From positions 6,095 through 70,094 of the forward strand of contig CAZJNH010000006.1 in the NCBI GenBank assembly GCA_964547425.1: 64,000 nucleotides of DNA, in the 5' to 3' direction. A program made the translations under genes and the position numbers. Positions 19,090 through 37,596 of the stretch are shown here, piece after piece (the stretch's first letter is position 1; every line of letters starts with the position of its first letter). A model generated the notes under the pieces. The model had not been told where the DNA came from. It was given only the letters and a program-made list of their open reading frames with translations, and did not search any database. The DNA is from an uncultured Candidatus Saccharibacteria bacterium (GTDB lineage: Bacteria; Patescibacteriota; Saccharimonadia; UBA4664; CAZJNH01).

Positions 19090-19217
19090 GTAATATCCCT
19101 TTTACCCCTCGACTACGCTCAGGGCTCTTCGAGCAAAATTAAAGCTGGTGAACCGCGGTTTCCTTCGACTTTGCTCAGGACCTGCTGGCTCGCCAGTGGG
19201 TTAATAGGTACCGAAGG

Positions 19218-19246
19218 ATCATAGCAATCAGTCGCCCACCTGTCAA
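19218..19246 (-). promoter_or_regulatory. Sigma-70-like promoter of the rplC-led ribosomal operon
   Basis: minus strand TTGACA-17 nt-TATGAT about 125 nt upstream of the rplC start; the leader contains a GAGCAAA…TTTGCTC hairpin. Confidence 0.55.
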
Positions 19247-19282
19247 CAGATTGAACCTGGAAATTCCCTCCTGGTAATACCC

Positions 19283-19311
19283 TTGACAGTTTATGCCTCT
19301 TATGCTAATAT
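19283..19311 (+). promoter_or_regulatory. Sigma-70-like promoter for the 19380 gene
   Basis: TTGACA-17 nt-TAATAT; the spacer contains TTATGC twice. Confidence 0.5.
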
Positions 19312-19379
19312 ATTGACCACTTTGAGGGTAATTAACTTATCCGAAAAGTACCTTTACTCAACACTACGAAAGGAGACAC

Positions 19380-20003
19380 ATGAACCGCCGCCTGATGGTT
19401 GCGGTCGTTGTTGTTTTCGGCTTAGCGGCGTTCGCCTGCGGCAAAGTCCAGCCTAAAGCTGAACTGACACCCAAGGCGACGGCAACGGTTGCCATCGCGA
19501 AGCCGGCCTGCGAGCCCTCCCTGACGGCGGTCTGCCTGAAGGACGGGTCGAAACTCTCGATCGGCGACAAAGTCGACGAGTCGAAGTTCAGCTGCAAGGC
19601 TCCGGACGGCGGCATCACCATGTGTGAGGCTCTCGACCAGAACGGCCCGCAGGGCAACATCTTCGCCTACACCGACGGAAAAGCGATCACAACACTTGTT
19701 GTGATCAACGCCGGCGAGGAGCCCAAGGAGCGGTCGTATTTCCCGAAGGTCCACTTCGAGGATACGCTCCAGCAGGCGACGCAAGCCCTCCCTGGTAGCA
19801 AGCCGTCTGTCGTCAATGGCATCCCCGTTCTCGAGGTTCGCCAGGAATCGATGTCGGTGTACTACCTGTTCGAACCCTGCCGCAGATTCAACGTCCGAGC
19901 TGACCAATCGGATTATCCGAACAGTCCGCTCTACGGCGCCGTGATCTCAGGCAGTGGTCAGCCTTCCGTCGACACGCTCGTTACCAAGACGGACTGTCGC
20001 TAG
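19380..20003 (+). CDS. Secreted or lipoprotein-like hypothetical protein (Cys-rich)
   Basis: 207 aa; N-terminal hydrophobic signal ending …AAFACGK; AAGGAGA RBS; followed by a terminator. Confidence 0.6.
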   Translation: MNRRLMVAVVVVFGLAAFACGKVQPKAELTPKATATVAIAKPACEPSLTAVCLKDGSKLSIGDKVDESKFSCKAPDGGITMCEALDQNGPQGNIFAYTDGKAITTLVVINAGEEPKERSYFPKVHFEDTLQQATQALPGSKPSVVNGIPVLEVRQESMSVYYLFEPCRRFNVRADQSDYPNSPLYGAVISGSGQPSVDTLVTKTDCR

Positions 20004-20020
20004 GTGAGAGTAAAGGTCAA

Positions 20021-20050
20021 GGCCCCGGATTTCCGGGGCCTTTTCCTTTG
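20021..20050 (+). terminator. Intrinsic terminator
   Basis: GGCCCCGGA-tt-TCCGGGGCC followed by TTTTCCTTTG. Confidence 0.7.
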
Positions 20051-20062
20051 CCTTGAATTTAT

Positions 20063-21340
20063 TTACCTCATGTAGCGATAGATTGTGCCGGTCGTCCCAA
20101 TCATCCAGGGAATACCGTTGGAGTCGACGGTAATATCCTGGGCGCCTCCGCTGATATTGGCCCAGTTGTTGCTTTCATTTCTGTAAAAGATGGCATGATT
20201 GTGGTTAACTCCCCAAACTTCGTTGTTTGGTCCGATACCTACATCAGCTAACCCGCCAGAGTTTTTATGCCAGGGGCTGCCGGAGTTGTCGTAAACATTG
20301 CCTGTGGTGTCGGATTCATTGCTAAGCGCCCAAGTGTTGCCGCCGGCCGTGCCCTCGATTCTGACTATGTAAGGATTCGGGTTGGAGAAGGTCGGCCAAC
20401 AATAGGAGAGAGTATGCCCTGGGCAATCGGTTTTACCGGTCCAGCGGTAGGTCTTGCCGTTGGTTCCATCGAGCCAAACCGCGCCGTTCCAGGCCGTACC
20501 GACGTCGGCAGCCACAGCGTTCATGCCTCTATATGTCCCGCTGATGTACCTGACCAGAGTATGACTGCTGCCCGATATAATCCAGGCGCTGCTAGAGTCA
20601 ACGTCAACCCGGTTAACCAGGCCGCCGCCTCCCTTGTCCGCCCAAGCGGTATTGTTGTTAACACGTTGGTAGAGGTCACCATTGGTGCCAGCGATCCAGA
20701 CTCCGGCGCGTCCAGCACCGATATCTTTGCCTGTACCGCCAACAGCGTACCAGTTGTCGAAGTGGCCGGTGCCAATCACGTCCCCTGCCGGAGTCTGATA
20801 CTCCTGAACCGCCTGGCCCCAGTTACCAGCTATAGTGTCGATGCCACCCTGGTTAGCCGAAACCACAATTCCAACGTGCCCACTTCCGTCTCCGTTGGTA
20901 TAAACCATATCTCCGGGCTGGATATGGCTAAGCTGATAGCCGCCGTACCATTGGCCATGAGCCGCAAACCAGTCTTTCATATCGCCTGTGCTCGGAATGT
21001 CCCAGTCTCCGTCGGCTGGGGAGTAGCTCCGTCCGGTGCCTTTAATGATGCGGTTACCAGAATTGGCGTAAACCCAGCTAAGAAAGTCGGCGCACCAAGC
21101 CTCACAACGGTGGGCGTACTTGGTGCAGTTTCCAGTGCCTGAAGGAGTCCCTCCGGTCTCGTGGTAGCCAATTTGGCTTTTAGCGATAGAGACGATGTTG
21201 CTGCCATCGCTGGCATGAATTGAAAGTAATCTGACCGTAAAAAAGGTCGAGGCCAGAGCTATAACACCTAGCGCCAAATTGAGGTTGAATCTTAAGCCAC
21301 GGGCTATTCTGAGTCTCTTTGTTGCGGTTCTACTTGGCAT
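20063..21340 (-). CDS. Membrane-anchored CHAP-domain peptidoglycan hydrolase fused to propeller/lectin-like repeats
   Basis: Cys…His CHAP-like core (NCTKYAHRCEAWCADF…GHVGIV) then repeated …G..W..G.NG..Y… units; start trimmed to MPSRTATKR…TM helix (the ORF track begins 99 nt earlier). Confidence 0.6.
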   Translation of the reverse strand: MPSRTATKRLRIARGLRFNLNLALGVIALASTFFTVRLLSIHASDGSNIVSIAKSQIGYHETGGTPSGTGNCTKYAHRCEAWCADFLSWVYANSGNRIIKGTGRSYSPADGDWDIPSTGDMKDWFAAHGQWYGGYQLSHIQPGDMVYTNGDGSGHVGIVVSANQGGIDTIAGNWGQAVQEYQTPAGDVIGTGHFDNWYAVGGTGKDIGAGRAGVWIAGTNGDLYQRVNNNTAWADKGGGGLVNRVDVDSSSAWIISGSSHTLVRYISGTYRGMNAVAADVGTAWNGAVWLDGTNGKTYRWTGKTDCPGHTLSYCWPTFSNPNPYIVRIEGTAGGNTWALSNESDTTGNVYDNSGSPWHKNSGGLADVGIGPNNEVWGVNHNHAIFYRNESNNWANISGGAQDITVDSNGIPWMIGTTGTIYRYMR

Positions 21341-21535
21341 TGACGCTGTGCTCCGTTTTGGCTGGGTCATAAACCGGCAGATGCTTGATCCGGTTGTCAT
21401 CCATCCAGCGTTGAGTGTAGAAAAAAAGCACAACCGCAAAGTTAATGGCGATTGCCAGAATTAAAAAATTACGGGTCGTTAGCCAGCTTGTTTTGTGTTT
21501 TGCCATTACTTAGAGCCTAGAAGCATAAGCGTAAT

Positions 21536-22609
21536 ATGTCAAATACAAAAACGTGCTGTGCTAAAATACTTCTTATGAATCCAGAATCACCACAACCAGG
21601 ATCGGAACAAGATCAAAACTCCGGGCAGCAGCTGGCCCAAGAACTAAACCAAATTCAGGCCGAGCAGGCCCAGGACAAACCTGCCGAACCCACCAAAGAC
21701 GGCCGCTTTCGGCGCTGGACCCGCAATGCATTAATTGCAGCAGGCATTGGGGGCGCTCTCGGAGGCGCCGAGCTCGCTACACACCAGCAGGAAAAGCCCG
21801 ACAAGGCTCCTACACCATCCACATCCCCGGTGACGCCAGAGCAGACAGAGGCGCCGCCGTTTCTAAATCAATTCGCGGCAGAACGGGCAAAGCCTTTCAA
21901 GATTGGAGAGATCGACAATATTATTAAAGTTGGTAACTTCGAAACCCTCAAACAGCATCAGCTTCAAGTCGTTGACCGATTAGCCTCCAGCGAAAAATCA
22001 ACTTTCACAGCGATCAGTATGGACGGCGAAAAACCGCCAGTGGATCTAAACGATTTCGCTTTTGGAAACCAGGTTGCGAACGAGGTGGCAGGTAGCGGCA
22101 TTAGCATCAACTACCAGTACACGCAGGGTAATGAGGTTAAAAACGCTACCTTTCAAGTCAAAGCCCGAACTCCGGAAAACACCTACGTTATCTTCGTCCC
22201 CGAAAGTACCGATCTATCGAAATACGAGCCGAGTACCGGACAAGGTGCCGAGGCTTTTACTCACTGCTCCGAAAACGCTTGCGTGACAATGCTCAAAAAC
22301 GCCCAGCACACACCTGAAGGAGCTGAACCGGCAACAGGTATTAGTACCAACCGGATCAACGCCTTCACCGCGGCTATGCAATCCTCATTCGAGGTCACGG
22401 GTGGACAGGATGCTGCCGAAAACGCGATCGGCTTCAATGCTTTCACTAAAGGCGTTGGAACCGCTTTAACCAATATTGAGTCCGGCCAAGACTACGAAGC
22501 CTATAGCTCATACGTTAGCGTGCCTCCCGGCGGCGAACAGGCCCAACCTCCGATATACAAGGTAGACCAACAGACCTACAAGCAAATGTCCGATCAGCTC
22601 TACAAGTAG
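21536..22609 (+). CDS. Hypothetical membrane-anchored protein (Q/P-rich linker plus C-terminal globular domain)
   Basis: 357 aa; one TM segment (ALIAAGIGGALGGAELA); the start is uncertain and may be the internal MNPESPQ… at 21575. Confidence 0.5.
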   Translation: MSNTKTCCAKILLMNPESPQPGSEQDQNSGQQLAQELNQIQAEQAQDKPAEPTKDGRFRRWTRNALIAAGIGGALGGAELATHQQEKPDKAPTPSTSPVTPEQTEAPPFLNQFAAERAKPFKIGEIDNIIKVGNFETLKQHQLQVVDRLASSEKSTFTAISMDGEKPPVDLNDFAFGNQVANEVAGSGISINYQYTQGNEVKNATFQVKARTPENTYVIFVPESTDLSKYEPSTGQGAEAFTHCSENACVTMLKNAQHTPEGAEPATGISTNRINAFTAAMQSSFEVTGGQDAAENAIGFNAFTKGVGTALTNIESGQDYEAYSSYVSVPPGGEQAQPPIYKVDQQTYKQMSDQLYK

Positions 22610-22624
22610 TAAACAGCCTACTTT

Positions 22625-23971
22625 TTACGGAGTGTTGCGCCAGTAGACGTAAACTTGACCGTTCTTGCCGATAATCCAAGGCTTACCGTGCACGTCCACG
22701 CTAATCGCCTTACCTCCACCTTGCAGGGTGGGATTCCAGTGAGGTGAAGTGGTTGACCCATTCCACTTGTAGACGGTTGCGCTGGAGTTTACTATCCACA
22801 CTCCGTTGTCGCCGCCGATGCCGATATCAATCGCACCGCCGGTAATTTTTTTGTACACATTGCTGCTCCAGTAGTAGATGTTACCTGCGGTTTCGGACTC
22901 ATTACTGATAATCCAGGATCCACCGCCGGCGCTCACATCGATGCGCTTTGCGAACGGCGCGGGCGGCGTGGTCGATTGCCTAGGCCAAGAGGGACTGGAT
23001 GTTGAGCCATTCCATTTATAAGTATTGCCGTTGGTTCCAACTAGCCAGACGACACCGCTGGATCCGATTCCAATGTCTGATGCCGTGGCATTCATGTAGG
23101 TCCAGGCCGGGCCGCGGAAGACATGGCTATGGTCGGCGGTGTTAATGCGCCATGGGTTGCTGGGATCCATGTCTATATGAGAGGTGCCAGTACCAGCCAA
23201 CTGGGTCCAGCTTGAGGAATTTAACCTGTAAACCCTGCCGTCGGTCGCGGCAACGTTAACGCTATTCATTACACCAATGTCGGTCGCCTGCAGGCCGTTT
23301 GGCAAATCGGGCATTTTAGTCCATGAAGAGGCGTATTTATTGAAAGCCGCTGTAACTTGAGACTGGACGTCGTAAAAGGTGTACGCGGCACAAGCGGAGT
23401 CTTTGCAGGATGGCGGGGGCCCGGGAGTTGCCTGGAAGTGGACGTGCGACCCATTACCGCATTCGCCGCCGGCATTGCCAACGGTGCCGAGCGTCGTACC
23501 AGCCCCTACCGACGCACCGGAGGTGATGTTGCTGGGCATCGAGTTGGGCGTTAGGTGGTAATACGCGTAGTAGATACCGTCGCTGCCGTGAATCGCCACC
23601 TGGTCCTCCGCTGCGTAATGCCTGGCGCTATAAATCGTACCGGCCTTCGCCACCTGAACGATCCGTCCGCAGGGGGCAAAAATATCCGAAGCGTTGTAGT
23701 CATGATGGACGTTGTAATTTAGAGCGTACGATCGTTTTTCAGCGGACGGCCAATGATCGGCGATATCAGCCTTGGTGGTTCTAAGCGGGAAGGCGCTTAG
23801 TGCCGGGATGGTAGCAGCGTGGCTAAAGAAGATCCAATATACCCCGACCACCGATACCAAAGCCAAAAGCACAATTAGAGTAGTCTTGTTGGGCTTAAAC
23901 CTTTTCGATAGTTTTCGCTTTGCGCGCACTTTCTTCCTTTTCCTAGGCATCATTAGTAACAGTACAAGCAT
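22625..23971 (-). CDS. Membrane-anchored M23 (LytM-type) metallopeptidase fused to propeller/lectin-like repeats
   Basis: 448 aa; HxxxD (HHDYNASD) and HxH (SHVHF) M23 motifs, then repeats similar to those in 20063..21340. Confidence 0.6.
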   Translation of the reverse strand: MLVLLLMMPRKRKKVRAKRKLSKRFKPNKTTLIVLLALVSVVGVYWIFFSHAATIPALSAFPLRTTKADIADHWPSAEKRSYALNYNVHHDYNASDIFAPCGRIVQVAKAGTIYSARHYAAEDQVAIHGSDGIYYAYYHLTPNSMPSNITSGASVGAGTTLGTVGNAGGECGNGSHVHFQATPGPPPSCKDSACAAYTFYDVQSQVTAAFNKYASSWTKMPDLPNGLQATDIGVMNSVNVAATDGRVYRLNSSSWTQLAGTGTSHIDMDPSNPWRINTADHSHVFRGPAWTYMNATASDIGIGSSGVVWLVGTNGNTYKWNGSTSSPSWPRQSTTPPAPFAKRIDVSAGGGSWIISNESETAGNIYYWSSNVYKKITGGAIDIGIGGDNGVWIVNSSATVYKWNGSTTSPHWNPTLQGGGKAISVDVHGKPWIIGKNGQVYVYWRNTP

Positions 23972-24001
23972 AAGCGTTATTCGTCAATCAGGTTACTACC
24001 A

Positions 24002-24030
24002 TTGACAGCATAAGCTTTTTATGCTAATGT
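24002..24030 (+). promoter_or_regulatory. Sigma-70-like promoter for the 24074 gene
   Basis: TTGACA-17 nt-TAATGT; the spacer is GCATAAgctttTTATGC (6-bp inverted repeat). Confidence 0.5.
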
Positions 24031-24073
24031 AGTTTCGCACCTTTTTACCGGAATACTACTGAGAGGAGCACAT

Positions 24074-24427
24074 GTGAGCCGTTTTCGGCTGATGTTGCTG
24101 TCATGTGGCGTGGTACTGGTCGTCGCCATTGGCGTGCGAGTGACGACTCACGATGTGCCGGCTGGCAAGGTCACGGCTAGTGAAGGCAGGTCCTTGCTGC
24201 CGCCGATGCCTAGCTGCCAGTACGGAATGGACGCAGACGGCTGTGTGGCGGCTCCAACCCCTGAAACACCGCTCTACTGCGTCCGGGAAGGTCACCTTCC
24301 CGAAACGCCTCCTGGCTGTATCGTCGTCGACAAGATCGAAGACGTGCCTCCAGGCGTAGTGTGGATACCGTCGCATGGCGGGCTGACCGATCCGGACGCG
24401 ATTCGTCGCTTCTGGGCGAACGATTAG
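24074..24427 (+). CDS. Small secreted hypothetical protein (GTG start)
   Basis: 117 aa; signal-like N-terminus; GAGGAG RBS; terminator follows. Confidence 0.55.
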   Translation: MSRFRLMLLSCGVVLVVAIGVRVTTHDVPAGKVTASEGRSLLPPMPSCQYGMDADGCVAAPTPETPLYCVREGHLPETPPGCIVVDKIEDVPPGVVWIPSHGGLTDPDAIRRFWAND

Positions 24428-24443
24428 CCAACCCCCCCTGCCC

Positions 24444-24485
24444 AAAAAGAGGACCCACGGCCTACCGTGCGGTCCTCTTTGTTTT
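24444..24485 (+). terminator. Intrinsic terminator
   Basis: GAGGACC-cacggcctaccgtgc-GGTCCTC followed by TTTGTTTT. Confidence 0.7.
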
Positions 24486-24505
24486 GGCGTGATAATATTA
24501 ATGCT

Positions 24506-24709
24506 ATGAAAAAACGCGTTATTTGGTGGAAGATCACCAACTATCACTTCTTCGCTCTAATCGTCATCTACTTCGGCATGAGTATGCTCCAAATCGGGCT
24601 GCCGGAGCGCTATGAAAGCACCCGCAGCGCGCTTTCACAAATCCAACTGGTAATGCTCGGTTTTTTGGGGTTATTAACGGTTATCAACCTGTTTCGTAAC
24701 TGGAAATAA
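24506..24709 (+). CDS. Small two-TM membrane protein
   Basis: 67 aa from the internal Met (MKKRVIWWKITNYHFFALIV…); the ORF track's upstream start lies inside the terminator. Confidence 0.4.
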   Translation: MKKRVIWWKITNYHFFALIVIYFGMSMLQIGLPERYESTRSALSQIQLVMLGFLGLLTVINLFRNWK

Positions 24710-24714
24710 TTTAG

Positions 24715-25344
24715 CTAAATCTGGCAACTGGCGCTGGCAAGGATTGTGCCGGCTTTCCCGTCCCGAAGGATTGCGGAATATTTACCGGACCTGAGTCCGA
24801 GTTCGGTGTCGGTCGCTGATCCGGTAGCGGCTTGGCTGACAAAGTCTATAACCGTGCCTGAGCGCATCAACACAATGTTGCGGTTTTTGGCGTTCTGCCA
24901 GCTCATACTCCATTTAATCGAACTATGGCTAAGACGAGCACAGCTCAAGGCACCCGCGGGCGATAGGTTGGTATCACAGCTGCCGCCGTGGACCAGCATA
25001 GTTCCGGAGTTAACGGTAAAGGTATAGTTTCCAGCGGCCAGGTCGGAGCCTCCCTTCCAGCAGCCGGAGGTCGGTGAAGGATCGTTCGACGTCGAAACCG
25101 CGCGGCCGTTGTAGGTGATGGCATGAGAGCTCGGCCCGGTAGAGCGGTAACCAAATTCGTATTGGCCGGCGGCCTGAACCGAACAACTGTCGCCCGCGGA
25201 CATCTGAACGATGCCGCTTGCACAACTGGCGGTCGCGGCGTGGCTGAAGTAAAGGTATATCCCGAAAGCGATGGCGGTTAAACCCGCGGCCATAAGCAGG
25301 GTCATTGGGCTAAGCTTTACGCCTTTTTTGATGCGGGTAGCCAC
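24715..25344 (-). CDS. Membrane-anchored or secreted Cys-rich hypothetical protein
   Basis: 209 aa; N-terminal TM or signal; 8 Cys. Confidence 0.5.
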   Translation of the reverse strand: MATRIKKGVKLSPMTLLMAAGLTAIAFGIYLYFSHAATASCASGIVQMSAGDSCSVQAAGQYEFGYRSTGPSSHAITYNGRAVSTSNDPSPTSGCWKGGSDLAAGNYTFTVNSGTMLVHGGSCDTNLSPAGALSCARLSHSSIKWSMSWQNAKNRNIVLMRSGTVIDFVSQAATGSATDTELGLRSGKYSAILRDGKAGTILASASCQI

Positions 25345-25610
25345 TAGAAGGTAACCGCTGAAAGGTTAAGGAAGAAGCCGCGGGCGGTGACGGCGGCGAT
25401 AATAGCGGCGACCAATAGAATCGCGTATTCGATCTTGCGGTCAATTTGGAATTTATCGTGCTGAGCCAGGCCAAAGCCGATTAGCATTCCAAGCGGGAAG
25501 ACGGTTTTGCCGTTGTACTGCAGCCAAATCAAACCAAGTATCGTGTAAAGCAGGATTTTCAGAAAATAAGAACTGTCGGTTTCGCGCGCCGATTTTTTTG
25601 GCATGACCAA
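25344..25610 (-). CDS. Small membrane protein
   Basis: 88 aa; 2-3 hydrophobic helices. Confidence 0.45.
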   Translation of the reverse strand: MVMPKKSARETDSSYFLKILLYTILGLIWLQYNGKTVFPLGMLIGFGLAQHDKFQIDRKIEYAILLVAAIIAAVTARGFFLNLSAVTF

Positions 25611-25646
25611 ATCCTAACAAAGTGCTTACGCTTTGTCCACCTCAGG

Positions 25647-26405: not shown

Positions 26406-26667
26406 TGTATGCCCCCAAAACGTCAACGGCGTCTTTCGTATCGGCCTGGATAATATCTAAATCACTGTCGCTTTCGGACATAATCGAATCTTCGGCGGCA
26501 ACTCCCTGCTTGAGTGCGTTACTGGCATCGTCAACGTTGCCGGTAGCGCTAATCGGCTCAATATCACTCGGCTTCGGCTCAGCCGTGTTGTTTTTGATCG
26601 CCACGGCGGCGGCCAGCACCACTAAAATAATCGCGATTGGGGCAACAAGTTTTAACCGAGCGTTCAT
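26389..26667 (-). CDS. Small secreted or anchored acidic protein
   Basis: 92 aa; N-terminal TM or signal. Confidence 0.45.
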   Translation of the reverse strand: MNARLKLVAPIAIILVVLAAAVAIKNNTAEPKPSDIEPISATGNVDDASNALKQGVAAEDSIMSESDSDLDIIQADTKDAVDVLGAYNDNSF

Positions 26668-26693
26668 GCCTCTATTATAAGGTATTTGTTTAA

Positions 26694-28854: not shown

Positions 28855-28892
28855 GCCTCACATTATACCTTATAGGCGAACAACGATCGAAC

Positions 28893-30056: not shown

Positions 30057-30093
30057 AACTTAATTGTAACGCTAGCGCTTAACTAAATGAAAA

Positions 30094-30150
30094 GGGAACA
30101 ACCCTCCCTCGTCTAGTCTTTAGTTAAACGGGTTGTATAGGGTTGCACCC
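30094..30150. repeat. 57-nt palindromic intergenic element, copy d (diverged)
   Basis: GGGAACAACCCT-ccCTCGTCT…gggtTGTAT-AGGGTTGCACCC. Confidence 0.55.
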
Positions 30151-30175
30151 TTTTCGGATGGTTGGCTGCGTCAGA

Positions 30176-30577
30176 TTACGGCAGGAATGGAGGTGGGCCA
30201 CCGCACTGGTAGTAGTACTGGAGCCCTAGGCAGAAGACTTGCCACTGCAATGAATTCTGTTGCGAGTACAGGCCGTTTAGCAGGTTCTGGTAGTAATTAA
30301 TCTGAGTCGTCAGGCTAGCGGCCGATGCAGATTCGCCTAGTCCTTTATTGATAAGAGTTTGGCGTGAGGTTTGTAGGGTATTGATCGTATTTTGGTAGCC
30401 GATGATAAGCCGGTTAACGCTTGTTAGCTGGGATTGTGCCGTGGCTAGTTGGGCCTTGAGGTTGGCACAGTAAACCGCAGGCGGTACTTCCGGCGCAGCG
30501 TTAGCCATTGCTGGAATAGCCATTACCCCTAGTGGAATCGCAAACGCTACCATCGAAAGAGCTAGTTTCTTAAACAT
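30176..30577 (-). CDS. Secreted Q/N-rich coiled-coil protein
   Basis: 133 aa from MFKKLALSMVAF… signal peptide; AATGGAG RBS. Confidence 0.5.
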   Translation of the reverse strand: MFKKLALSMVAFAIPLGVMAIPAMANAAPEVPPAVYCANLKAQLATAQSQLTSVNRLIIGYQNTINTLQTSRQTLINKGLGESASAASLTTQINYYQNLLNGLYSQQNSLQWQVFCLGLQYYYQCGGPPPFLP

Positions 30578-30685
30578 AACAGAACTCCATTCATTTATGA
30601 GTTTAGTTAAGCCCTCCCCCTGTAGGATTGCATTGTGCAAAATTCCAAACGAAAAGCCCCCGACGATAAAGTCAAAGACTTTTCG

Positions 30686-31561
30686 TCAGGGGCGATGTAT
30701 GTCGGGACCAAGCTCGTAGATCTCCTGTAGGTACGGACGGAGTTTGCCGAAGGCTTGTTTCTCGATTTGGCGAATCCGTTCGCGCGTCAGGTTGAGCATT
30801 TGCCCAATCGCTTCAAGCGTTTGAGGGTCGTCGTCGAGCAGACCGAAACGCAAGCAGATGATGTCAGCCTCCTGCTCGGTTAGCACTTCTGGCAAACAAG
30901 ACAGCATCTGCGAGTAGGCCACTCGATCCGGGTTCGGAGAACTGCTCCAATCGGGGATAGTGTTGACGTACGCCAAATCGCCGTCTTCGTCGATGGCTCG
31001 GTCAAGCGAACCGATGTATCTGTCGGCCAGCTCCCGCAAGCGATCAACTTTTTCCCGCGTTGTTTCAAGTTTCGCCGCCAGCTCGTCGTCGGTTGGCTCG
31101 CGATTCAGCTTGGTCTCCAGCTGGCTGCGCGCTACCCGAAAACGATTTACCTCGGCGAAAAGGTGCGACGGCAACCGAATCGATTCGCCCTTATCCGATA
31201 TCGCCCGGCCGATGGTTTGGCGGACCCACCATGTCGCATAAGTCGAGAAACGGAAGCCTTTGCGCCAGTCGAACTTCTCGACCGCCTTCATCAAGCCGAG
31301 GTTACCTTCCTGGACCAGGTCGAGGTAGGACATCCCGCGGTTGAAGTATCGGCGGGCGATCTTGGTCACCAGCCGGACATTGGCTTCGATGAACTCGGTC
31401 CGTGCCCGCACGCCATCTGCTCCACCAGCTTCGATCCGCTGCGCTAGCTTGATCTCTTGATCAGGCGTCAACAGCGGCGGACCGTTTTTGACATCGCGCA
31501 GATACAGTCCAACCATGTCGAACGTAAACCCAGGTTCAACGTCGTGCTCGCGCAGCGCCAA
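30686..31561 (-). CDS. RNA polymerase sigma factor, sigma-70 family (RpoD/SigA-like, no region 1.1), TTG start
   Basis: 291 aa; regions 1.2-2-3-4 (…YATWWVRQ…, …LNLTRERIRQIE…); GAGAGGGGG RBS; a perfect TATAAT lies upstream at 31610..31615. Confidence 0.85.
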   Translation of the reverse strand: MALREHDVEPGFTFDMVGLYLRDVKNGPPLLTPDQEIKLAQRIEAGGADGVRARTEFIEANVRLVTKIARRYFNRGMSYLDLVQEGNLGLMKAVEKFDWRKGFRFSTYATWWVRQTIGRAISDKGESIRLPSHLFAEVNRFRVARSQLETKLNREPTDDELAAKLETTREKVDRLRELADRYIGSLDRAIDEDGDLAYVNTIPDWSSSPNPDRVAYSQMLSCLPEVLTEQEADIICLRFGLLDDDPQTLEAIGQMLNLTRERIRQIEKQAFGKLRPYLQEIYELGPDIHRP

Positions 31562-31627
31562 TCTCTACACCCCCTCTCATATTTCAACGTACGCAAACTT
31601 AGCTGCCTGATTATACCGCTTTTGAAG

Positions 31628-32395
31628 CTAGTCGAGGAGGTAGGATTTGTCTTCGTTGAGGTTGTCGAGAATTCGCATATCTTCGGTCGAGAGTTTGAAG
31701 TCGAAGATATCGAAGTTTTCTTTGATTCTGGCTTCATGCCTCGATTTCGGTAGCGTCACCAGATTGTGTTGAATATTCCACCGCAGCAAAACCTGAGCCG
31801 GTGACTTTTTATGCCTGGTAGCGATATCAATCAGGATTTTGTCATTGAGACGATGGCAGCGAGTCAGCGGACTGTAAGCTTCAACTATAATTCCTTGATC
31901 CTGGCAAAATTTAATCAGTTCTTGGTTATAGCGATACGGCGTAACTTCAATTTGGTTAGCAAACGGCTTAACCTTGGCTTTTCCCAGCAGCGCCGGCAGC
32001 CGTTTGAGGCCATAGTTGCTGACGCCAATGTTCTTGGCCAGGCCCCTTGATTGCAACTGCTCCATCACCCGCCAAATGTGGTGCCCCGGCCCAACCGGCG
32101 GCGGCCAATGAACCAGGTACAAATCGACATACTCCAGTTTCAGCCGCTTAAGGCTGTCTTTAAGGGCATGCGCCGGATTCAAGAACTGGGTCGGGAATAG
32201 TTTCGTTGTCACCCAAAGCTTATCGCGATCAAGGCCGGACCGGCGGATCCCCTCCCCTACTCCGGTCTCGTTTTTGTAAATGTAGGCCGTGTCGATGTGC
32301 CGGTAGCCGGCCTCAAGCGCCCATTCCACGGCTTGCTGCGCCTCGGCGTCCGCCATCTGCCAAGTCCCAAATCCAATCTGTGGTATATCTTTCAC
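31628..32395 (-). CDS. Aldo/keto reductase
   Basis: 255 aa; AKR family motifs (…GYRHIDTA…, …IGVSNY…). Confidence 0.8.
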   Translation of the reverse strand: MKDIPQIGFGTWQMADAEAQQAVEWALEAGYRHIDTAYIYKNETGVGEGIRRSGLDRDKLWVTTKLFPTQFLNPAHALKDSLKRLKLEYVDLYLVHWPPPVGPGHHIWRVMEQLQSRGLAKNIGVSNYGLKRLPALLGKAKVKPFANQIEVTPYRYNQELIKFCQDQGIIVEAYSPLTRCHRLNDKILIDIATRHKKSPAQVLLRWNIQHNLVTLPKSRHEARIKENFDIFDFKLSTEDMRILDNLNEDKSYLLD

Positions 32396-32507
32396 TTATC
32401 CATTATAATCTCTCTCTAATTCCGGCTTTCTTGAGTCGGTCGCTCGAATGAGTAAGGGGTTGCCTGCCGCCCTCTGGCGGGTGCGTACCTTGGGAGGTGA
32501 GCCTTCT

Positions 32508-33017
32508 ATGGCTCAGGAAGTGAAGTTTTTGCAGATAGTGCAGGGCCCGCCGCGTTGGGATCTGGTTTTGCACCACCACAACGGCGGCGACATGCACTGG
32601 AGATCGAGCTGGTTGCAGTTCACGATTCAAGACGAATCGGGCAACAAGCGCCAACTTGACGCCATGATCTCCGGCCTGGTCCAGGATGGCTATCGCGGCA
32701 ACAGCGCGTACTTCCTAACCGGGCATACTGACCTCGAGGGCTTTGACCATTTGGTCGGTTACTTCGACCTTACTTCGAGGAAAGGCTGGTTTTGGCTGAT
32801 AAAGAGCAAAGCCGAGCGCCTATCTGACGAAGAGGAAGACATGATCCGGGACTCAGCGGCCGGCGAGCTTCGCCACTTGCTGACGAAGCCACTACCGTTC
32901 GAGGCGATCAACTACATCGGTCTGGCGTTGGCCGAGATCGAGCACCACAAAGCTGTGCAAAGAAGACCAAGCTTCGATCACCGCTACGGCAAGTATCTTA
33001 ACCGAGCGGAAATGTAG
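32508..33017 (+). CDS. Hypothetical protein
   Basis: 169 aa from the internal Met with a GGGAGGTGA RBS. Confidence 0.45.
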   Translation: MAQEVKFLQIVQGPPRWDLVLHHHNGGDMHWRSSWLQFTIQDESGNKRQLDAMISGLVQDGYRGNSAYFLTGHTDLEGFDHLVGYFDLTSRKGWFWLIKSKAERLSDEEEDMIRDSAAGELRHLLTKPLPFEAINYIGLALAEIEHHKAVQRRPSFDHRYGKYLNRAEM

Positions 33018-33096
33018 ATAGAGCCTCAATGCAAGAGCGTTGGGGCTCTTGCATTTAAACCGAACAACAAACGAACGGTTGTGCTAAGATATCTCA

Positions 33097-34653
33097 ATGA
33101 CTCAAGCGCAGGCGCTAGATGTAATGAAGTTGGGGCACAACGTTTTTCTAACCGGCGAGCCGGGTTCGGGCAAAACTTATACTCTCAATAAATTCATCGC
33201 TTTCTGCAAACGCGAAGGTATTGGTGTTGGCGTGACGGCCTCGACCGGCATTGCGGCGACCCACATCGGCGGCATGACCATCCATAGCTGGAGCGGGATA
33301 GCCGTTCATGACGAAATTAGCGACGCGCACTTGGAACGGCTGCAAAACCGCAAACAACTTCAGGCCCGGTTCAAAAAAACCCGGGTACTAATAATCGATG
33401 AGATCTCGATGCTCGACGGAGCCAGGCTGGGGATGATTAACCGCGTTTGCCAGGCAATGAAGCACAGCGACAAACCGTTTGGCGGGTTGCAGGTCATTTT
33501 GTGCGGCGATCTCTTCCAGCTGCCACCGGTTACGCGCGGCCAGCAAGACATCGACTTCGCGCACTTCTCCCCAGCCTGGAAGGACTTAAACCTCAAGGTC
33601 TGCTACCTCTCCGAGCAGCACCGGCAAGAGGAGGACGAATCGATGCTATCTCTGTTGCGCCAAATCCGCTCCGGCGAATTGAGCGACGATGCTATGAAGC
33701 TGCTGGAAGAACGGCTGGAACAAACCAATGAAGATGAGGATATTACTCGCCTTTACTCCCACAACGTCGACGTTGACTCATTAAACGCCAAGCGCTTAGC
33801 TCTAATCGAAGACGAATCAAAAATATTTCAAATGCAAACTCACGGCTCTGCTCATTTGGTGGAGCAGCTGCAAAAGAGCTGCTTGGCGCCGGAAAAATTA
33901 GAACTCAAAGTCGGTGCCCAGGTTTTATGTGTAGCCAACAACCCAGCCGAGGGTTATATGAACGGCACCCGCGCCGAAGTAATCGGCTTTGACGATGGCC
34001 AGCCGGTTATACGACTCGCGGGCGGTAAAAAAATCAAAATGACTCAAAAAACCTGGGCTATCGAAGACGGCGACCGCATATTGGCGGAGGTCGCACAATA
34101 TCCGCTGCGCCTCGCGTGGGCGATTACCGTGCACAAAAGCCAGGGTATGAGCCTCGACGCCGCCGAAGTCGACCTCTCCCGCGCCTTTACGCCCGGTATG
34201 GGTTATGTCGCGCTGTCTCGCTTGCGCCAACTCTCCGGCCTCTACCTTCGCGGCATCAATCAAATGGCTCTGCGGGTTAGCCCAGAAATTACCGAGTTCG
34301 ACGCCAGCCTACGCGCTCAGTCCACCAAAGTAGTCGACAGCTTGTCGGGCATAAATGAAAAAGAGCTGACACAAATGCATCAGCAAGTTAAAACTAATCT
34401 GGCCCAAGACTACGCCGAGTACGACAAAGCCCTCTTCGAAGACTTGCGCACCTGGCGCACGGACCAGGCCAAAAAACAGAAGTTACCAGCCTACATGATC
34501 CTGGACGATAAAACCTTAATCGCTTTAAGCGCCGAACGCCCCCAATCCGAAGCCGACATGCTGCTAGTTTCGGGAATCGGTCCCAAGAAACTAAAAGACT
34601 ACGGCAGCGACCTAATGCGACTCATCAACCAAAAATCCGGTAGACTGTTTTAG
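33097..34653 (+). CDS. SF1B DNA helicase (PIF1/RecD-like) with C-terminal helix-hairpin-helix/HRDC-like module
   Basis: 518 aa; Walker A GEPGSGKTY; PIF1/RecD-like motif order; C-terminal …LLVSGIGPKKLKDYG…. Confidence 0.7.
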   Translation: MTQAQALDVMKLGHNVFLTGEPGSGKTYTLNKFIAFCKREGIGVGVTASTGIAATHIGGMTIHSWSGIAVHDEISDAHLERLQNRKQLQARFKKTRVLIIDEISMLDGARLGMINRVCQAMKHSDKPFGGLQVILCGDLFQLPPVTRGQQDIDFAHFSPAWKDLNLKVCYLSEQHRQEEDESMLSLLRQIRSGELSDDAMKLLEERLEQTNEDEDITRLYSHNVDVDSLNAKRLALIEDESKIFQMQTHGSAHLVEQLQKSCLAPEKLELKVGAQVLCVANNPAEGYMNGTRAEVIGFDDGQPVIRLAGGKKIKMTQKTWAIEDGDRILAEVAQYPLRLAWAITVHKSQGMSLDAAEVDLSRAFTPGMGYVALSRLRQLSGLYLRGINQMALRVSPEITEFDASLRAQSTKVVDSLSGINEKELTQMHQQVKTNLAQDYAEYDKALFEDLRTWRTDQAKKQKLPAYMILDDKTLIALSAERPQSEADMLLVSGIGPKKLKDYGSDLMRLINQKSGRLF

Positions 34654-35322
34654 CTAACTGAGCGTGGCTGTTTTAAACTTGGCTCGGTAGATGCAATACC
34701 CGCAAGTGCTCGACTCAAGAGGTAACTCACCGCCCAGAACCTCAGATATTTCGTCAATGAAACCGTAGAATGCTGGCATATCAGCTATTACCTCGCGGAA
34801 AATCGGCTTTGACCTAAAGAATGCATATCCTTTGTGGTATCGAACATCTTGCGGTTGGATTACCAAAAGCCCCATCCTCGAAATCTGTTTAGGCTCGCCT
34901 ACCGCAGGATTCTCATGTGCAAATTTATAGGCGTGTAGCTGCCTGTCGTATTTAGCTAGACTTTCCGCGCTAGGATCGGTGATCTTCAAATCCAGTACGC
35001 CATACGTTCCGTCATCGAACTTAGTCAAAAGGTCGAATCTGCCATTTAGGTAGCAGTCTAGCTTGTTGGGTATTGGCTTTGATTTTAAAAAACCTTCTTG
35101 AGAGTCGAACTTCCCAGACGGCAATTCAGAAATTATGTCACTTAAATTGTGCTGCAAAGCCATCGTCTGGAGCTGACTGTTCATCTTCGTAAAGATTGAC
35201 GGGAAAGGCGTGCTTGGAGTGGTTAGGGCATTTACAACTTTCTGGTAGTAACAGTGTTTACAGTCTTCCCAGAGAAACTTAAAGTCCGACGGACTAAGCT
35301 TATATTTGGCTGGGCTATTCAT
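34654..35322 (-). CDS. PD-(D/E)XK-like nuclease with a split Cys4 (CxxC…CxxC) metal site
   Basis: 222 aa; …FDLLTKFDDGTYGVLDLKITD… (D…DLK); Cys pairs CKHC and CGYC; the stop abuts the helicase stop (TAGCTA). Confidence 0.4.
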   Translation of the reverse strand: MNSPAKYKLSPSDFKFLWEDCKHCYYQKVVNALTTPSTPFPSIFTKMNSQLQTMALQHNLSDIISELPSGKFDSQEGFLKSKPIPNKLDCYLNGRFDLLTKFDDGTYGVLDLKITDPSAESLAKYDRQLHAYKFAHENPAVGEPKQISRMGLLVIQPQDVRYHKGYAFFRSKPIFREVIADMPAFYGFIDEISEVLGGELPLESSTCGYCIYRAKFKTATLS

Positions 35323-35591
35323 AGTTTGAATTCATCCTTAAATTTCCTTGATCGAAACTTAGTCTTAACTTCTGTGATGCGTTTTTCTATCGTTGCGAAA
35401 ATCTTTTCAACGTCAGCCTCGTCGTAGCTGTATAGTGTTTTATTGCCGGTATTACCTAACAGTCTCAGGTCATTTAGAATCCTATTCGTACGTTTCTCGG
35501 CAACTCGAACAAAGCGCTCCCGTCTTGCTTGGGGTGTATAAAGCTCTTTTCGATCAATCTCTTCTTCACTCATAGAAGATATATACCACAC
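35319..35591 (-). CDS. Small charged helical protein
   Basis: 90 aa; ATGA overlap with the downstream nuclease-like gene. Confidence 0.4.
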   Translation of the reverse strand: MWYISSMSEEEIDRKELYTPQARRERFVRVAEKRTNRILNDLRLLGNTGNKTLYSYDEADVEKIFATIEKRITEVKTKFRSRKFKDEFKL

Positions 35592-35788
35592 TATCTATGT
35601 ATATACAACGGGCTGGATAGAGTTAGCTAAAATTGTAGTTCTTGACGTATAACTATTGACCAGTTTACAAACGGCGACTAGGATAAAAGTAAATCGCCGC
35701 ACGAGAATTTGAGCCTCAGATACGACGATTTACGCTGACGATTTTTTTCGTCTTCTCCATACTAACTAATTGCTCAAGGAGGGTAAAG

Positions 35789-35980
35789 ATGAGTGTTTTT
35801 TGGCTATACCGACGCGCCGATAGGGACATCGGCTGGAGACTCCGAGATGGCAACCAGAAAATAATTGCTATTTCCGGTGAAGGCTTCAAGACAGAGACCT
35901 CGGCGCGTAACTCAATCGCTAATGTGAAGCTTGAAGCACCTCGTGCCGAGATAAAAACTTCGGACAAGTCGCCTATTTAA
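35789..35980 (+). CDS. YegP-like (DUF1508/UPF0339) small protein
   Basis: 63 aa; FWLYRRADRDIGWRLRDGNQKIIAISGEGFKTETSARNSIANVK matches the YegP repeat pattern; AGGAGG RBS. Confidence 0.55.
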   Translation: MSVFWLYRRADRDIGWRLRDGNQKIIAISGEGFKTETSARNSIANVKLEAPRAEIKTSDKSPI

Positions 35981-36082
35981 CCGCAAGCAAGGATTACCAC
36001 TGACGGATTATGTCCTGAGACGGTTTTCTTAAATCTTGACGTTCGTATTTTGTTCTATTATGATAAGATAAGCATAAGATCC

Positions 36083-37030
36083 ATGAGGAGTAATATAGAT
36101 AATCAAATACTGTGCGAGGATTGTGTGGAAGGGCTGGCTACAATCCCTGCGAACTCAATTGACGGCTGTATTGCTGACCCTCCTTATAACTACGAGTTTA
36201 TTGGTCATAAATGGGATGCAGAAGAAATAAAAAGAAGGGCAGCTAAGGCCAAGGACTCTACTACCTTAGTTAAGAACATTCCGTACGGTAGCGGTCTGGC
36301 AGGTGGTGTACGGAATGAGAGGTGGTACCAAAAGAATGCCGAGAACATCAATGACTATAGGAAGTGGACTCGACAGTGGGGTGAACAGGTGTTAAGGGTG
36401 TTAAAACCTGGGGCATATATCCTGGTTTTTAATAGCTCCCGCACGATTGCACACGTTCAGGTTGCGCTCGAGGAAGCTGGCTTCTATGCCCGAGATACCC
36501 TCGTGTGGAGAAGGCATTCTGGAATACCTAAAGGCCTAAACTACGCTAAAAAAATAGCTAAGGAAGACGCCTCAAGAGCTAGAGGGTGGAATGGTTGGCA
36601 CAGCTGTTTACGCAATGAGTGGGAGGCTATAGCAATGCTTCAAAAGCCTCTGGAGAATAACTACATGGAAACCGTCAAGAAGTACGGGGTCGGTCTTCTT
36701 CACGCCGAGGACGCTTTTGGATTCAAGTCGAATATTTTCGAAGGAATTAAGCGAGACAAGAAGGATAGCTTTAATGTCCACTGCACGGTTAAGCCGGCTG
36801 ATTTAATTAAGCAGCTTATCGATCTTATTATTCCAGCCCATAAAGGCGCCATCGTACTGGATCCCTTTATGGGTTCGGGTACAACAGCAGTCGCGGCTAT
36901 AGAGAGCGGTATCTCCTACTTAGGGTATGAAATTAATCCTGAATATTGCGAAATCGCAAAAGAGCGTGTAAATAAGATGGCAGCAACGAGCTCACCTCTG
37001 AACCGTAAAGCTCCCCTTAAGCTTTTTTAG
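36083..37030 (+). CDS. DNA methyltransferase, amino-MTase beta class (N6-adenine or N4-cytosine)
   Basis: DPPY (motif IV) near the N-terminus and FMGSGTT (motif I) near the C-terminus; ORF track start 36050 is TTG, the first in-frame ATG is 36083; TTGACG-17-TATGAT promoter at 36036..36064. Confidence 0.8.
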   Translation: MRSNIDNQILCEDCVEGLATIPANSIDGCIADPPYNYEFIGHKWDAEEIKRRAAKAKDSTTLVKNIPYGSGLAGGVRNERWYQKNAENINDYRKWTRQWGEQVLRVLKPGAYILVFNSSRTIAHVQVALEEAGFYARDTLVWRRHSGIPKGLNYAKKIAKEDASRARGWNGWHSCLRNEWEAIAMLQKPLENNYMETVKKYGVGLLHAEDAFGFKSNIFEGIKRDKKDSFNVHCTVKPADLIKQLIDLIIPAHKGAIVLDPFMGSGTTAVAAIESGISYLGYEINPEYCEIAKERVNKMAATSSPLNRKAPLKLF

Positions 37031-37552
37031 ATATTGCTCTAAATCGAAGCTAGTTTTCTCTTTTATATAAGCAAAGGCGTCGGGTCCAACGTAAAGTGTC
37101 CAGCCACCAACACGACAAGCACCAAGTGCTGCGGGCAGATTATCTTCTCTTAAGATAAGTAATACGGGACGAAACCCCTGCCCCTTGAGCATTGCTCCGT
37201 ATTGTTTGAATTTCTTAAGCGTACCAGAATCCCCAGATCCTATACGGTACTTAGTGTCAATGGCATCTTTGCCTACGAACATATCGGTTGGTTCGTCTGC
37301 TTCTACTTTAATTGCCGGCAAATAATCTGCACACTTCAATTCGCACAACCTATCGATGAGTAATTGCCAGCACATACCTAGCTCTCTGCCCCAGTACTGC
37401 CTGTTCTCTCGTTTTATCTCAGGAGTTATATTGAAAATATCCATTAGCAAATCGTGGTCATTGTTTTCTTCGCCGTACGCTTTATCGGAAAATGATCCTG
37501 CATACTGGCTGATGATCTTCTTTAGCTCGATATCTAAATCTTGTTGTGTCAT
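36992..37552 (-). CDS. Putative Type II restriction endonuclease (PD-(D/E)XK-like)
   Basis: 186 aa from MTQQDL…; …EADEPTDMFVGKDAIDTKY… fits PD…D-x-K; convergent with the MTase and overlaps it by 39 nt. Confidence 0.45.
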   Translation of the reverse strand: MTQQDLDIELKKIISQYAGSFSDKAYGEENNDHDLLMDIFNITPEIKRENRQYWGRELGMCWQLLIDRLCELKCADYLPAIKVEADEPTDMFVGKDAIDTKYRIGSGDSGTLKKFKQYGAMLKGQGFRPVLLILREDNLPAALGACRVGGWTLYVGPDAFAYIKEKTSFDLEQYLKKLKGSFTVQR

Positions 37553-37569
37553 TTTTTGCACTTTTAGCA

Positions 37570-37596
37570 AAAAGCCCAGTTAAGGGCTTTTTGTGG
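37570..37596. terminator. Bidirectional intrinsic terminator after rpsJ
   Basis: AAAAAGCCC-agttaa-GGGCTTTTTG. Confidence 0.7.

Follow-up and report, generated by a model that had tools for sequence, protein, structure and literature searches.

In the canonical str-S10-spc-alpha cluster, genes follow one another in the order rpsL-rpsG-fusA-tuf-rpsJ-rplC...rpsE-rpmD-rplO-secY-adk-map-infA-rpmJ-rpsM, with rpsJ (ribosomal protein S10) next to rplC (L3). In the 64,000-nucleotide stretch of contig CAZJNH010000006.1 analysed here (the window), these two genes are separated by 18,507 bp (19090–37596) holding about 20 open reading frames (ORFs) on both strands. Was an ordinary S10 operon recently interrupted, or is the separation a property of the lineage, in which each half would be expressed on its own? 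We consider it likely that the rpsJ/rplC break is a lineage trait to which a variable cargo of genes has been added. The rplC side of the break has a conserved promoter followed by a leader with a predicted RNA structure.

Gene identities were taken from Pfam and NCBIfam profile matches together with the translations, and every ribosomal gene lies on the minus strand. The genes that frame the break and the neighbouring junctions are as follows (Pfam/NCBIfam matches unless a line says otherwise):

4186–4299, minus strand: rpmJ, present in its usual place
4308–4532, minus strand: infA
9376–10689, minus strand: secY
10698–11135, minus strand: rplO
11132–11743, minus strand: rpsE
13040–13225, minus strand: rpsN of the zinc type, present in its usual place
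18481–19089, minus strand: rplC (L3), PF00297, TTG start, 202 aa
37597–37947, minus strand: rpsJ (S10), PF00338 (E=4e-36), last gene of a two-gene tuf-rpsJ unit
37983–39158, minus strand: tuf (EF-Tu), Pfam, 35 bp upstream of rpsJ
45665–47758, minus strand: fusA
53273–53749, minus strand: rpsG
53749–54156, minus strand: rpsL
54166–57969, minus strand: rpoC
57969–61454, minus strand: rpoB
61661–62260, minus strand: clpP
62257–63540, minus strand: tig

The unit headed by rplC reads rplC-rplD-rplW-rplB-rpsS-rplV-rpsC-rplP-rpmC-rpsQ-rplN-rplX-rplE-rpsN-rpsH-rplF-rplR-rpsE-rplO-secY, as deduced from the translations and checked for order against Pfam-annotated relatives. Measured against an rpsJ-led S10 operon, rplC does not directly follow rpsJ, and the order from rplC to rpsQ is canonical. 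The 10 codons between the TTG start of rplC and its first ATG encode the conserved L3 N-terminus MKALLG; a TTG start is also found in three of seven related rplC loci, and the L3 protein of the closest relative has 202 aa. Note that the public L3 entry P0001 (192 aa) begins at the internal ATG and was probably mis-called, as compared with the TTG start at 19089 (202 aa).

Other junctions are open as well, with 5,514 bp between rpsG and fusA, 6,506 bp between fusA and tuf and about 4.8 kb between secY and infA. An earlier reading of these letters without database searches (the sequence-only reading) had recognized the first two of these splits and made them slightly too short (5.4 and 6.3 kb). 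Its remaining statements on layout agree with the gene calls: the 18.5-kb separation of rpsJ and rplC, the replacement of adk and map by 4.8 kb of other genes at the secY–infA junction, the absence of rpmD (encoding L30) between rpsE and rplO, which overlap by 4 bp (11132–11135), and the position of tig-clpP directly upstream of rpoB, with a clpP–rpoB spacer of 206 bp and neither clpX nor rplKAJL in between.

As judged from its protein matches, the window comes from a metagenome-assembled genome (MAG) of the Saccharimonadia (Saccharibacteria/TM7; Patescibacteria, or Candidate Phyla Radiation, CPR). Indeed, S10 is 73–78% identical to the proteins of Saccharimonadales/Saccharibacteria MAGs, and the named top matches of L3, RarA and SecY are all from Saccharimonadia/Saccharimonadales. 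The closest genome among the records is GCA_964478595.1 (L3 87%, RarA 81% and SecY 88% identical), referred to below as the closest relative.

Gene order was compared across eight Saccharimonadia contigs. The break between rpsJ and rplC recurred in every other Saccharimonadia contig examined that spans it, with gaps of very different sizes:

L001: 4.7 kb, rarA in the gap
L003: 4.2 kb, rarA not in the gap
L166: 9.7 kb, rarA in the gap
L165: more than 16 kb (the 10 kb upstream of rarA hold no rpsJ), rarA in the gap
L164: at least 4.3 kb (contig end), rarA in the gap
GCA_964478595.1 (L163 and L161): about 22.6 kb, rarA in the gap

These gaps have recurrent residents. The gene for replication-associated recombination protein A (rarA) lies upstream of rplC in five of the six split relatives (L001, L163, L164, L165 and L166), and a homologue of an 88-aa membrane protein encoded in the window does so in all six (L001, L003 and L163–L166, with 44–74% identity in tblastn); a DinB-like gene is a further resident in some of them. 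The homologues of the small membrane protein measure 83–88 aa, have no Pfam/NCBIfam family and are mostly encoded directly after rarA. The two ribosomal genes are adjacent (75 to about 200 bp) in L013, a more distant Saccharibacterium, in L005, a Berkelbacterium, and in L029, another Patescibacterium. L3 identity, on which the word ancient is based, amounts to 55–60% between split genomes and to 44% between the window and the unsplit L013.

Because six relatives have the break, with rarA and the small membrane-protein gene as residents, we conclude that it is not a recent insertion; being common to related genomes, it would predate their divergence. The earlier description of a lineage with unusual ribosomal protein operon architecture thus holds, in that the breaks recur across related Saccharimonadia, and a recent insertion as the origin of the rpsJ/rplC break must be given up, the layout of the break being ancient in the clade. 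Several observations pull the other way. The comparison covers few contigs, and its time depth is read from protein divergence alone; L003 has no rarA in its gap; the tig-clpP-rpoB arrangement was examined in the window only; and promoter-like sites are not enriched over shuffled sequence in the 18–38 kb region (10 as against 14.8±4.4). A metagenome scan with RarA returned 80 loci, none of them in a ribosomal context, RarA at 50–62% identity drawing in other phyla.

If the two halves are separate transcription units, rplC should possess signals of its own. We found a predicted promoter of sequence TTGACA-17-TATGAT with a TG extension at 19246–19218 (minus strand), which scores 11 out of 12 and is the best match in the 18–38 kb region. 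Both this site and the TTG start had been proposed by the sequence-only reading, and both stand, the MKALLG N-terminus being kept in relatives. The motif cTGTTGAC(A/G)-17-TAnnnT recurs upstream of rplC in all seven split loci, about 125–150 nt before the start codon, and in L161, L164 and L165 the upstream gene has its own terminator hairpin just in front of the –35 box.

The leader that would be transcribed from this promoter is about 130 nt long in the window and contains a conserved structured module (19130–19198, minus strand) followed by the U-rich tract CUUUAAUUUUG. The module is laid out as a helix P1, a bulge, a helix P2, an internal loop, a GG...CC pairing over an AA bulge, a variable helix P4 and a U-rich tract (for example CAUUAUUUGUG). 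P1 reads CUGG/CCAG, CUAG/CUAG, CUGGUGA/UUACCAG or CUGAACAU/GUGUUCAG depending on the locus; P2 differs in sequence between loci and is complementary in all of them; P4 occurs as UCCU/AGGA, UCC/GGA, CCC/GGG, UCUCC/GGAGA, UCAC/GUGA and UCGG/CCGA. The inner motif GG-U...A-AA-CC, with its AA bulge, is kept in sequence while the helices covary.

Single-sequence minimum-energy folds gave the P1–P2–inner hairpin layout in all seven loci, with energies of –15 to –31 kcal/mol; four of the seven also showed GG paired with CC across the AA bulge. The corresponding z-scores were weak (–0.04 to –2.8). When the leaders were aligned by hand on the structure, pairing held in all 112 cells, double changes were seen in 15 of 22 pairs, and none of 2000 column shuffles reached these values. 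An alignment fitted by hand in this way is biased towards the structure. MAFFT applied to whole leaders aligned them poorly. A first covariance model built on five seeds (R1) found nothing beyond its own seeds at default filters and had P3/P4 in conflicting registers, one column apart; a three-seed model with hold-outs took its place.

This model (R2) was trained on L161, L164 and L165 only and run with filters off, the window, L166 and L003 being held out. In the window, R2 gave 36.2 bits at 19130–19198 (E=1.2e-7), the top match in the 64 kb, and it recovered the other two hold-outs at the expected sites (L166, 18.7 bits, E=0.011; L003, 17.2 bits, E=0.029). Nothing above 13.9 bits was found in the rest of the window or in six control loci. 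In the model-based alignment of six loci, pairing is kept in 96.4% of the cells and both partners have changed in eight of 14 pairs. Not one of 500 shuffles came up to the observed value of any measure, and slid controls pair at 26–47%. Rfam covariance models gave no match at gathering scores in the window and none at E<=1 for the rplC leader, the 8334–9042 stretch or any other spacer; the sole match in the window at E<=1 is an unrelated weak Thr_leader (51427–51481).

We conclude that the rplC leader is a conserved structured 5' untranslated region, as predicted from sequence and backed by covariation. What the structure does is a separate matter, for which the S10 leader of Escherichia coli offers a precedent: there, L4 mediates NusA-dependent transcription attenuation as well as translational repression. 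Like that leader, the present one comprises about 125–150 nt ahead of an operon encoding L4, and its stable hairpin, with a U-rich tract after it, stands some tens of nucleotides ahead of the first start codon, in a structure kept through covariation; unlike it, the leader in the window precedes rplC and not rpsJ, and resembles no Rfam family. By this analogy, the hairpin and U-tract are a tentative candidate for an attenuator that responds to a ribosomal protein, an assignment that we regard as possible rather than probable. L4, whose gene is second in the unit, would be the most plausible ligand. We know of no such cis-regulatory RNA in the CPR, and the leader could be an autoregulatory attenuator not described before in these bacteria, which would have originated, or changed its place, with the splitting of the S10 operon in Saccharimonadia. 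The literature searched on Saccharibacteria operon structure held no description of an rplC leader, leaders not having been searched for specifically.

The case for the leader and its regulatory role is weakened on several counts. The U-tracts are interrupted (the 11 nt after the hairpin hold 6–8 U), which makes termination uncertain. The alignment comprises 6–7 sequences, two pairs of which are fairly close, and was fitted to the structure. The L001 leader has a 37-nt insertion in P4 and is a marginal member (9.8 bits with R1; 16.1 bits, E=0.2, with model R3), and a chance match in L005 outscored it in the R3 search; its membership is based on the manual alignment and the single-sequence fold only. 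A conserved GGUA box on the 5' side might, as judged by eye, pair with P1 as an antiterminator, a pairing that we do not put forward. Finally, L4 is proposed by analogy, no ligand having been identified here.

Could the hairpin have no regulatory role, and be a 5' stem-loop that stabilizes the mRNA or a leftover terminator of the upstream gene? A hairpin with a U-rich tail does resemble an ordinary intrinsic terminator, no ligand is known, and the z-scores are those given above. However, the hairpin lies downstream of the conserved promoter, and in L161, L164 and L165 the terminators of the upstream genes come before the –35 box; the preservation of the inner motif alongside covarying helices is typical of protein-binding leaders; and an essential unit of 20 genes would suffer from a constitutive terminator ahead of it. 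On balance we find a hairpin devoid of regulatory function rather unlikely, without being far-fetched. The leader in the window has one further element, which the closest relative does not have: at about 19105–19125 (minus strand), past the U-tract and ahead of the Shine-Dalgarno sequence, the inner hairpin of the module is partly repeated (CCCUGAGCGUAGUCGAGGGG compared with UCCUGAGCAAAGUCGAAGGA).

We then turn to the 18.5-kb block itself, whose contents bear on the idea that one or several genomic islands recently entered an otherwise canonical S10 operon. From rplC to rpsJ it encodes:

19380–20003, plus strand: hypothetical protein (ORF), divergent from rplC, in a putative secreted-protein cluster
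20063–21439, minus strand: putative secreted hydrolase, CHAP+Tectonin (Pfam)
21536–22609, plus strand: hypothetical protein of a paralogue family (ORF)
22625–23971, minus strand: putative secreted hydrolase, M23+Tectonin (Pfam)
24715–25344, minus strand: hypothetical protein (ORF)
25344–25610, minus strand: small membrane protein, 88 aa, no Pfam/NCBIfam family at cut-off
between the small membrane protein and the DinB/MDMPI-like gene: coiled-coil and hypothetical proteins, including ORFs 25647 and 26389
between these hypothetical ORFs and rarA: DinB/MDMPI-like protein (Pfam)
27655–28854, minus strand: rarA/mgsA, PF12002, PF16193 and PF00004
between rarA and the sigma-70 gene: PGA_cap protein (Pfam)
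30686–31561, minus strand: sigma-70 factor, group 1/2-like, 291 aa, Pfam regions 1.2, 2, 3 and 4
between the sigma-70 gene and the PIF1 helicase gene: aldo-keto reductase (AKR; Pfam)
33097–34653, plus strand: PIF1-family helicase with a C-terminal HRDC domain, PF05970 and PF00570
34654–35322, minus strand: PD-(D/E)XK nuclease (Pfam)
35319–35591, minus strand: 90-aa ORF
about 35.8–36.0 kb, plus strand: DUF1508 ORF (Pfam)
36083–37030, plus strand: type II N6/N4 DNA methyltransferase, PF01555 (6.7e-37), PADLOC MTase_II (2.6e-47)
36992–37552, minus strand: putative restriction enzyme, 186 aa, next to rpsJ, convergent with the methyltransferase gene and overlapping its 3' end

The sigma factor matches RpoS/RpoD-like NCBIfam models, all below their cut-offs. 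The 186-aa neighbour of the methyltransferase matched no Pfam or PADLOC family; we infer from its position, the sole basis for this, that it may be the cognate endonuclease. The two Tectonin proteins are putative cell-wall hydrolases and candidate host-interaction enzymes of an episymbiont. The putative secreted-protein cluster that they belong to (19380–25344) has homologues only in the closest relative (L161/L163), in which the hypothetical paralogue family represented by 21536–22609 has three copies.

The presence of accessory-type genes (a restriction-modification, R-M, system, a PIF1 helicase, secreted hydrolases), together with the fact that the low-GC R-M genes abut rpsJ, speaks for such islands. 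Against them stands the collinearity of about 12 of the 20 block ORFs with homologues in the 22.6-kb block of the closest relative, in the order AKR, the 30176 homologue, PGA_cap, rarA, the DinB-like gene, 26389, 25647, the small membrane protein, 24715 and the secreted-protein cluster; on this synteny, a single recent 18.5-kb insertion was rejected. That both residents, rarA and the small membrane-protein gene, are found ahead of rplC in relatives whose L3 is only 55–60% identical argues in the same direction, as does the core-like GC content and codon usage of most of the block. Moreover, the window contains no tRNA gene, and no integrase, transposase, recombinase or phage-type domain was found among the Pfam matches of the block proteins, flanking direct repeats not having been searched for systematically; a prophage or an integrative and conjugative element as the origin of the blocks was rejected for lack of a tRNA, an integrase or a phage-type domain. 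Recent islands are thus a very improbable explanation of the break.

Parts of the cargo are a different matter. The fractional GC content of the core genes is 0.53, and 0.61 at third codon positions (GC3). Block means range from 0.52 to 0.56, and most other block genes fall within about 0.05 of the core, with two departures. The segment 34654–37570 (PD-(D/E)XK nuclease, 90-aa ORF, methyltransferase and restriction enzyme) has a GC of 0.40–0.45 and a GC3 of 0.37–0.51, and fits the core codon usage most poorly; the segment 4634–8333 (exoribonuclease, hypothetical protein, purB and purC, at the secY–infA junction) has a GC of 0.57–0.59 and a GC3 of 0.70–0.78. The impression, gained by eye in the sequence-only reading, that the blocks do not differ from their surroundings in composition is therefore right for most block genes and wrong for these two segments. 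Several short hypothetical ORFs, chiefly on the plus strand of the fusA–tuf block, also have a GC of 0.57–0.62 and are doubtful as real genes.

The closest relative has the backbone from AKR to the secreted-protein cluster, and at the same site lacks the sigma factor, the 32448 ORF, the PIF1 helicase, the PD-(D/E)XK nuclease, the methyltransferase and the restriction enzyme; a 222-aa protein, a G5 protein, a NUDIX protein and a DUF6884 protein are encoded next to rpsJ instead. The purC/purB block is also absent from its site in that genome. Because of their atypical GC and their absence from the closest relative, the R-M island beside rpsJ (34.6–37.6 kb) and the purC/purB block look like recent gains. 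The earlier suggestion that the junctions show where accessory functions have landed is hence correct as far as the presence of accessory genes goes, and incorrect if recent insertion is meant to explain the break itself, which six relatives have in common.

A chimeric contig, misassembled or misbinned at the rpsJ or rplC junction, is scarcely credible. The source is a metagenome-assembled contig of 73,259 bp and GC drops just beside rpsJ, but both ends of the block recur with 100% identity in two Logan contigs of run SRR9179562, an independent assembly that probably drew on the reads used for the MAG. Of these, L170 (9,177 bp, 28496–37672) starts in the 3' end of rarA, includes the R-M island and reaches into rpsJ, and L162 (1,177 bp, 18238–19414) covers rplD/rplC and the region upstream of rplC. 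Moreover, the gene order is repeated in a different MAG, GCA_964478595.1, so that the chimerism which the sequence-only reading had named as a possible undoing of its claim is unlikely.

Do the other open junctions behave like rpsJ/rplC? Between secY and infA we found:

4634–5149, minus strand: Rv2179c-like 3'-5' exoribonuclease (Pfam/NCBIfam)
5146–5967, minus strand: hypothetical protein (ORF)
5822–7270, minus strand: purB (Pfam/NCBIfam)
7272–8333, minus strand: purC with a 75-aa N-terminal extension (Pfam/NCBIfam)
8334–9042: stretch of about 700 bp without a convincing ORF, between the ASCH gene and purC
9043–9375, minus strand: ASCH gene, abutting secY with no intergenic spacer

Within the 8334–9042 stretch lies a near-consensus promoter-like TTGACA-17-TATATT (8957–8929, minus strand), and the stretch might represent a long leader, a gene in decay or an RNA not yet recognized. 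In relatives, the same junction carries a CYTH gene and one hypothetical gene (L167, the closest relative), a cyclase gene (L168) or a DUF5674 gene (L169); neither adk and map nor the purC/purB set of the window was found there in any of the three relatives seen.

Between rpsG and fusA, the window contains:

47884–48666: NT5C nucleotidase (Pfam)
48560–48982: NUDIX protein (Pfam)
49011–49433: PCC protein (Pfam)
49457–50152: NUDIX protein (Pfam)
between this NUDIX gene and the ABC-F gene, plus strand: three hypothetical ORFs
51556–53211, minus strand: ABC-F protein, ribosomal-protection-like (343.8 bits, compared with an NCBIfam cut-off of 380)

Between fusA and tuf (39159–45664), several strong terminator-like hairpins and mostly hypothetical ORFs accompany two genes with Pfam matches:

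42784–43221: YGGT protein (Pfam)
43744–44916: secreted beta-helix protein (Pfam)

Both junctions are interrupted in L001–L003, with fusA–tuf gaps of 0.6–2 kb in these contigs and in L005. In L002, the rpsG–fusA junction holds a homologue of the NUDIX gene at 49457, and an ABC-F gene comes downstream of rpsJ; in L003 the NUDIX homologue stands upstream of fusA, as the ABC-F gene does in L001. This ABC-F ATPase thus recurs near str/S10 genes of several Saccharimonadia at differing junctions (window, 51556–53211, minus strand; L001, 1–1113; L002, 11331–12515), and we regard it as a translation-related resident and not as random cargo. The tuf/rpsJ junction, intact in the window, is a fifth breakpoint: a 356-aa hypothetical ORF splits it in L001 (8675–10000). 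In L166 (1527–2312), a 261-aa protein gene, and not tuf, stands upstream of rpsJ. At the other end of the window, a stand-alone response-regulator receiver protein of 114 aa (101–445, plus strand) is encoded downstream of rpsI, and the closest relative has a weak homologue in the same place (L167).

The transcription signals at these boundaries are predictions from consensus scans and fold energies, checked against shuffled sequence; all come from the scan except where stated:

4580–4552, minus strand: infA promoter-like site
4628–4598, minus strand: terminator-like hairpin after the exoribonuclease gene, before infA (–25.6 kcal/mol)
20019–20042, both strands: bidirectional terminator-like hairpin that separates the CHAP gene from the divergent gene beside rplC (–27.6 kcal/mol)
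37592–37569, minus strand: terminator-like hairpin AAAAAGCCC-UUAACU-GGGCUUUUU right after the rpsJ stop codon, found by eye and not flagged by the consensus scan (–15.8 kcal/mol)
39264–39236, minus strand: tuf promoter-like TTTACA-17-TATAAT
47842–47814, minus strand: fusA promoter-like site
47880–47855, minus strand: terminator-like hairpin before fusA (–25.7 kcal/mol)
53252–53232, minus strand: terminator-like hairpin after rpsG

Terminator-like hairpins are modestly enriched in the 38–58 kb region (45, as compared with 26.7±5.3 in shuffles). The predicted hairpin at 20019–20042 would shield rplC from upstream transcription. The sequence-only reading had most blocks ending in terminators and starting with promoters of their own; hairpins at four boundaries, plus the one after rpsJ, are in keeping with this, and the ASCH gene, which abuts secY with no promoter between them, is not.

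Taken together, we propose that the str-S10-spc-alpha cluster broke into several independently transcribed units in Saccharimonadia. The tuf-rpsJ unit would terminate at the predicted hairpin after rpsJ, and the genes from rplC to secY would be transcribed from their own conserved sigma-70-type promoter, the leader hairpin and U-tract possibly acting as a conditional terminator or a repressor-binding site, by analogy most plausibly for L4. With the halves transcriptionally independent, the spacer could accept genes without harm, and it would now consist of a conserved core (rarA and the small membrane-protein gene) and a cargo that differs between genomes: the CHAP/M23-tectonin hydrolases, PGA_cap and AKR in the window and the closest relative, the R-M island in the window alone. 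The rpsG/fusA, fusA/tuf and secY/infA junctions would behave alike, the purC-purB block having probably been gained recently. Saccharibacteria are naturally competent, as shown in cultivated strains (PMC10633639), and we infer that natural competence is a plausible route for cargo such as the R-M island and the purBC block.

Gene order inside the fragments (rpsL-rpsG; tuf-rpsJ; rplC to secY; infA-rpmJ-rpsM-rpsK-rpsD-rpoA-rplQ) is that of the canonical cluster. By contrast, four junctions of the window are opened by 4.8–18.5 kb, the places where adk, map and rpmD usually stand lack these genes, and each fragment has its own predicted promoter, most being flanked by a terminator-like hairpin. 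The absence of rpmD, here with a 4-bp overlap of its neighbours, does not set the window apart: according to Brown et al. 2015, as cited in 10.1101/2022.01.07.475337, L30 loss is CPR-wide and the S5 and L15 genes are adjacent without rpmD, so that on this source the missing gene is a known trait of the radiation and not a peculiarity of this genome. Wang et al. 2023 (PMC10633639) used the tuf promoter and terminator and the rpsJ promoter of Nanosynbacter lyticus TM7x as separate predicted elements, with which reporter and resistance genes were expressed in other Saccharibacteria. Such separate tuf and rpsJ signals fit a fragmentation of the cluster in the phylum; in the window, however, tuf and rpsJ are only 35 bp apart, and that study describes neither the rpsJ/rplC break nor an rplC leader.

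Integration hot spots and defence islands between conserved core genes are a familiar feature of bacterial chromosomes. As in such hot spots, the cargo between the same two core genes varies among the relatives, and in the window it includes a type II R-M system and a helicase–nuclease pair of atypical GC. Unlike in such hot spots, the flanking genes rpsJ and rplC are a pair that most bacteria co-transcribe, hallmarks of mobile elements such as an integrase or a tRNA were not found, and the cargo has a conserved part, consisting of rarA and the gene for the small membrane protein. A description of the rpsJ/rplC break with these two residents was not found in the literature searched, whose coverage was incomplete and does not amount to proof of novelty. 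Fragmented ribosomal protein clusters and insertion hot spots are kinds already known, and the finding overturns nothing.

For placing CPR genomes and judging whether contigs are intact, a set of 16 syntenic ribosomal proteins that includes S10 and L3 is in common use. In Saccharimonadia, the genes of these two are routinely 4 kb to more than 20 kb apart, a distance to be reckoned with when markers are extracted, bins checked and chimeras filtered out. A search for lineage-specific genes of these episymbionts would naturally turn to the junctions (here with hydrolases, R-M and purine genes), and the spacers might serve as permissive insertion sites for engineering. The rplC promoter and leader provide a concrete, testable candidate for ribosomal protein autoregulation in the CPR: if this holds true, the break would be a regulated operon boundary and not the outcome of neutral erosion, and ribosomal protein feedback could be tested in Saccharibacteria that are cultivable and genetically tractable.

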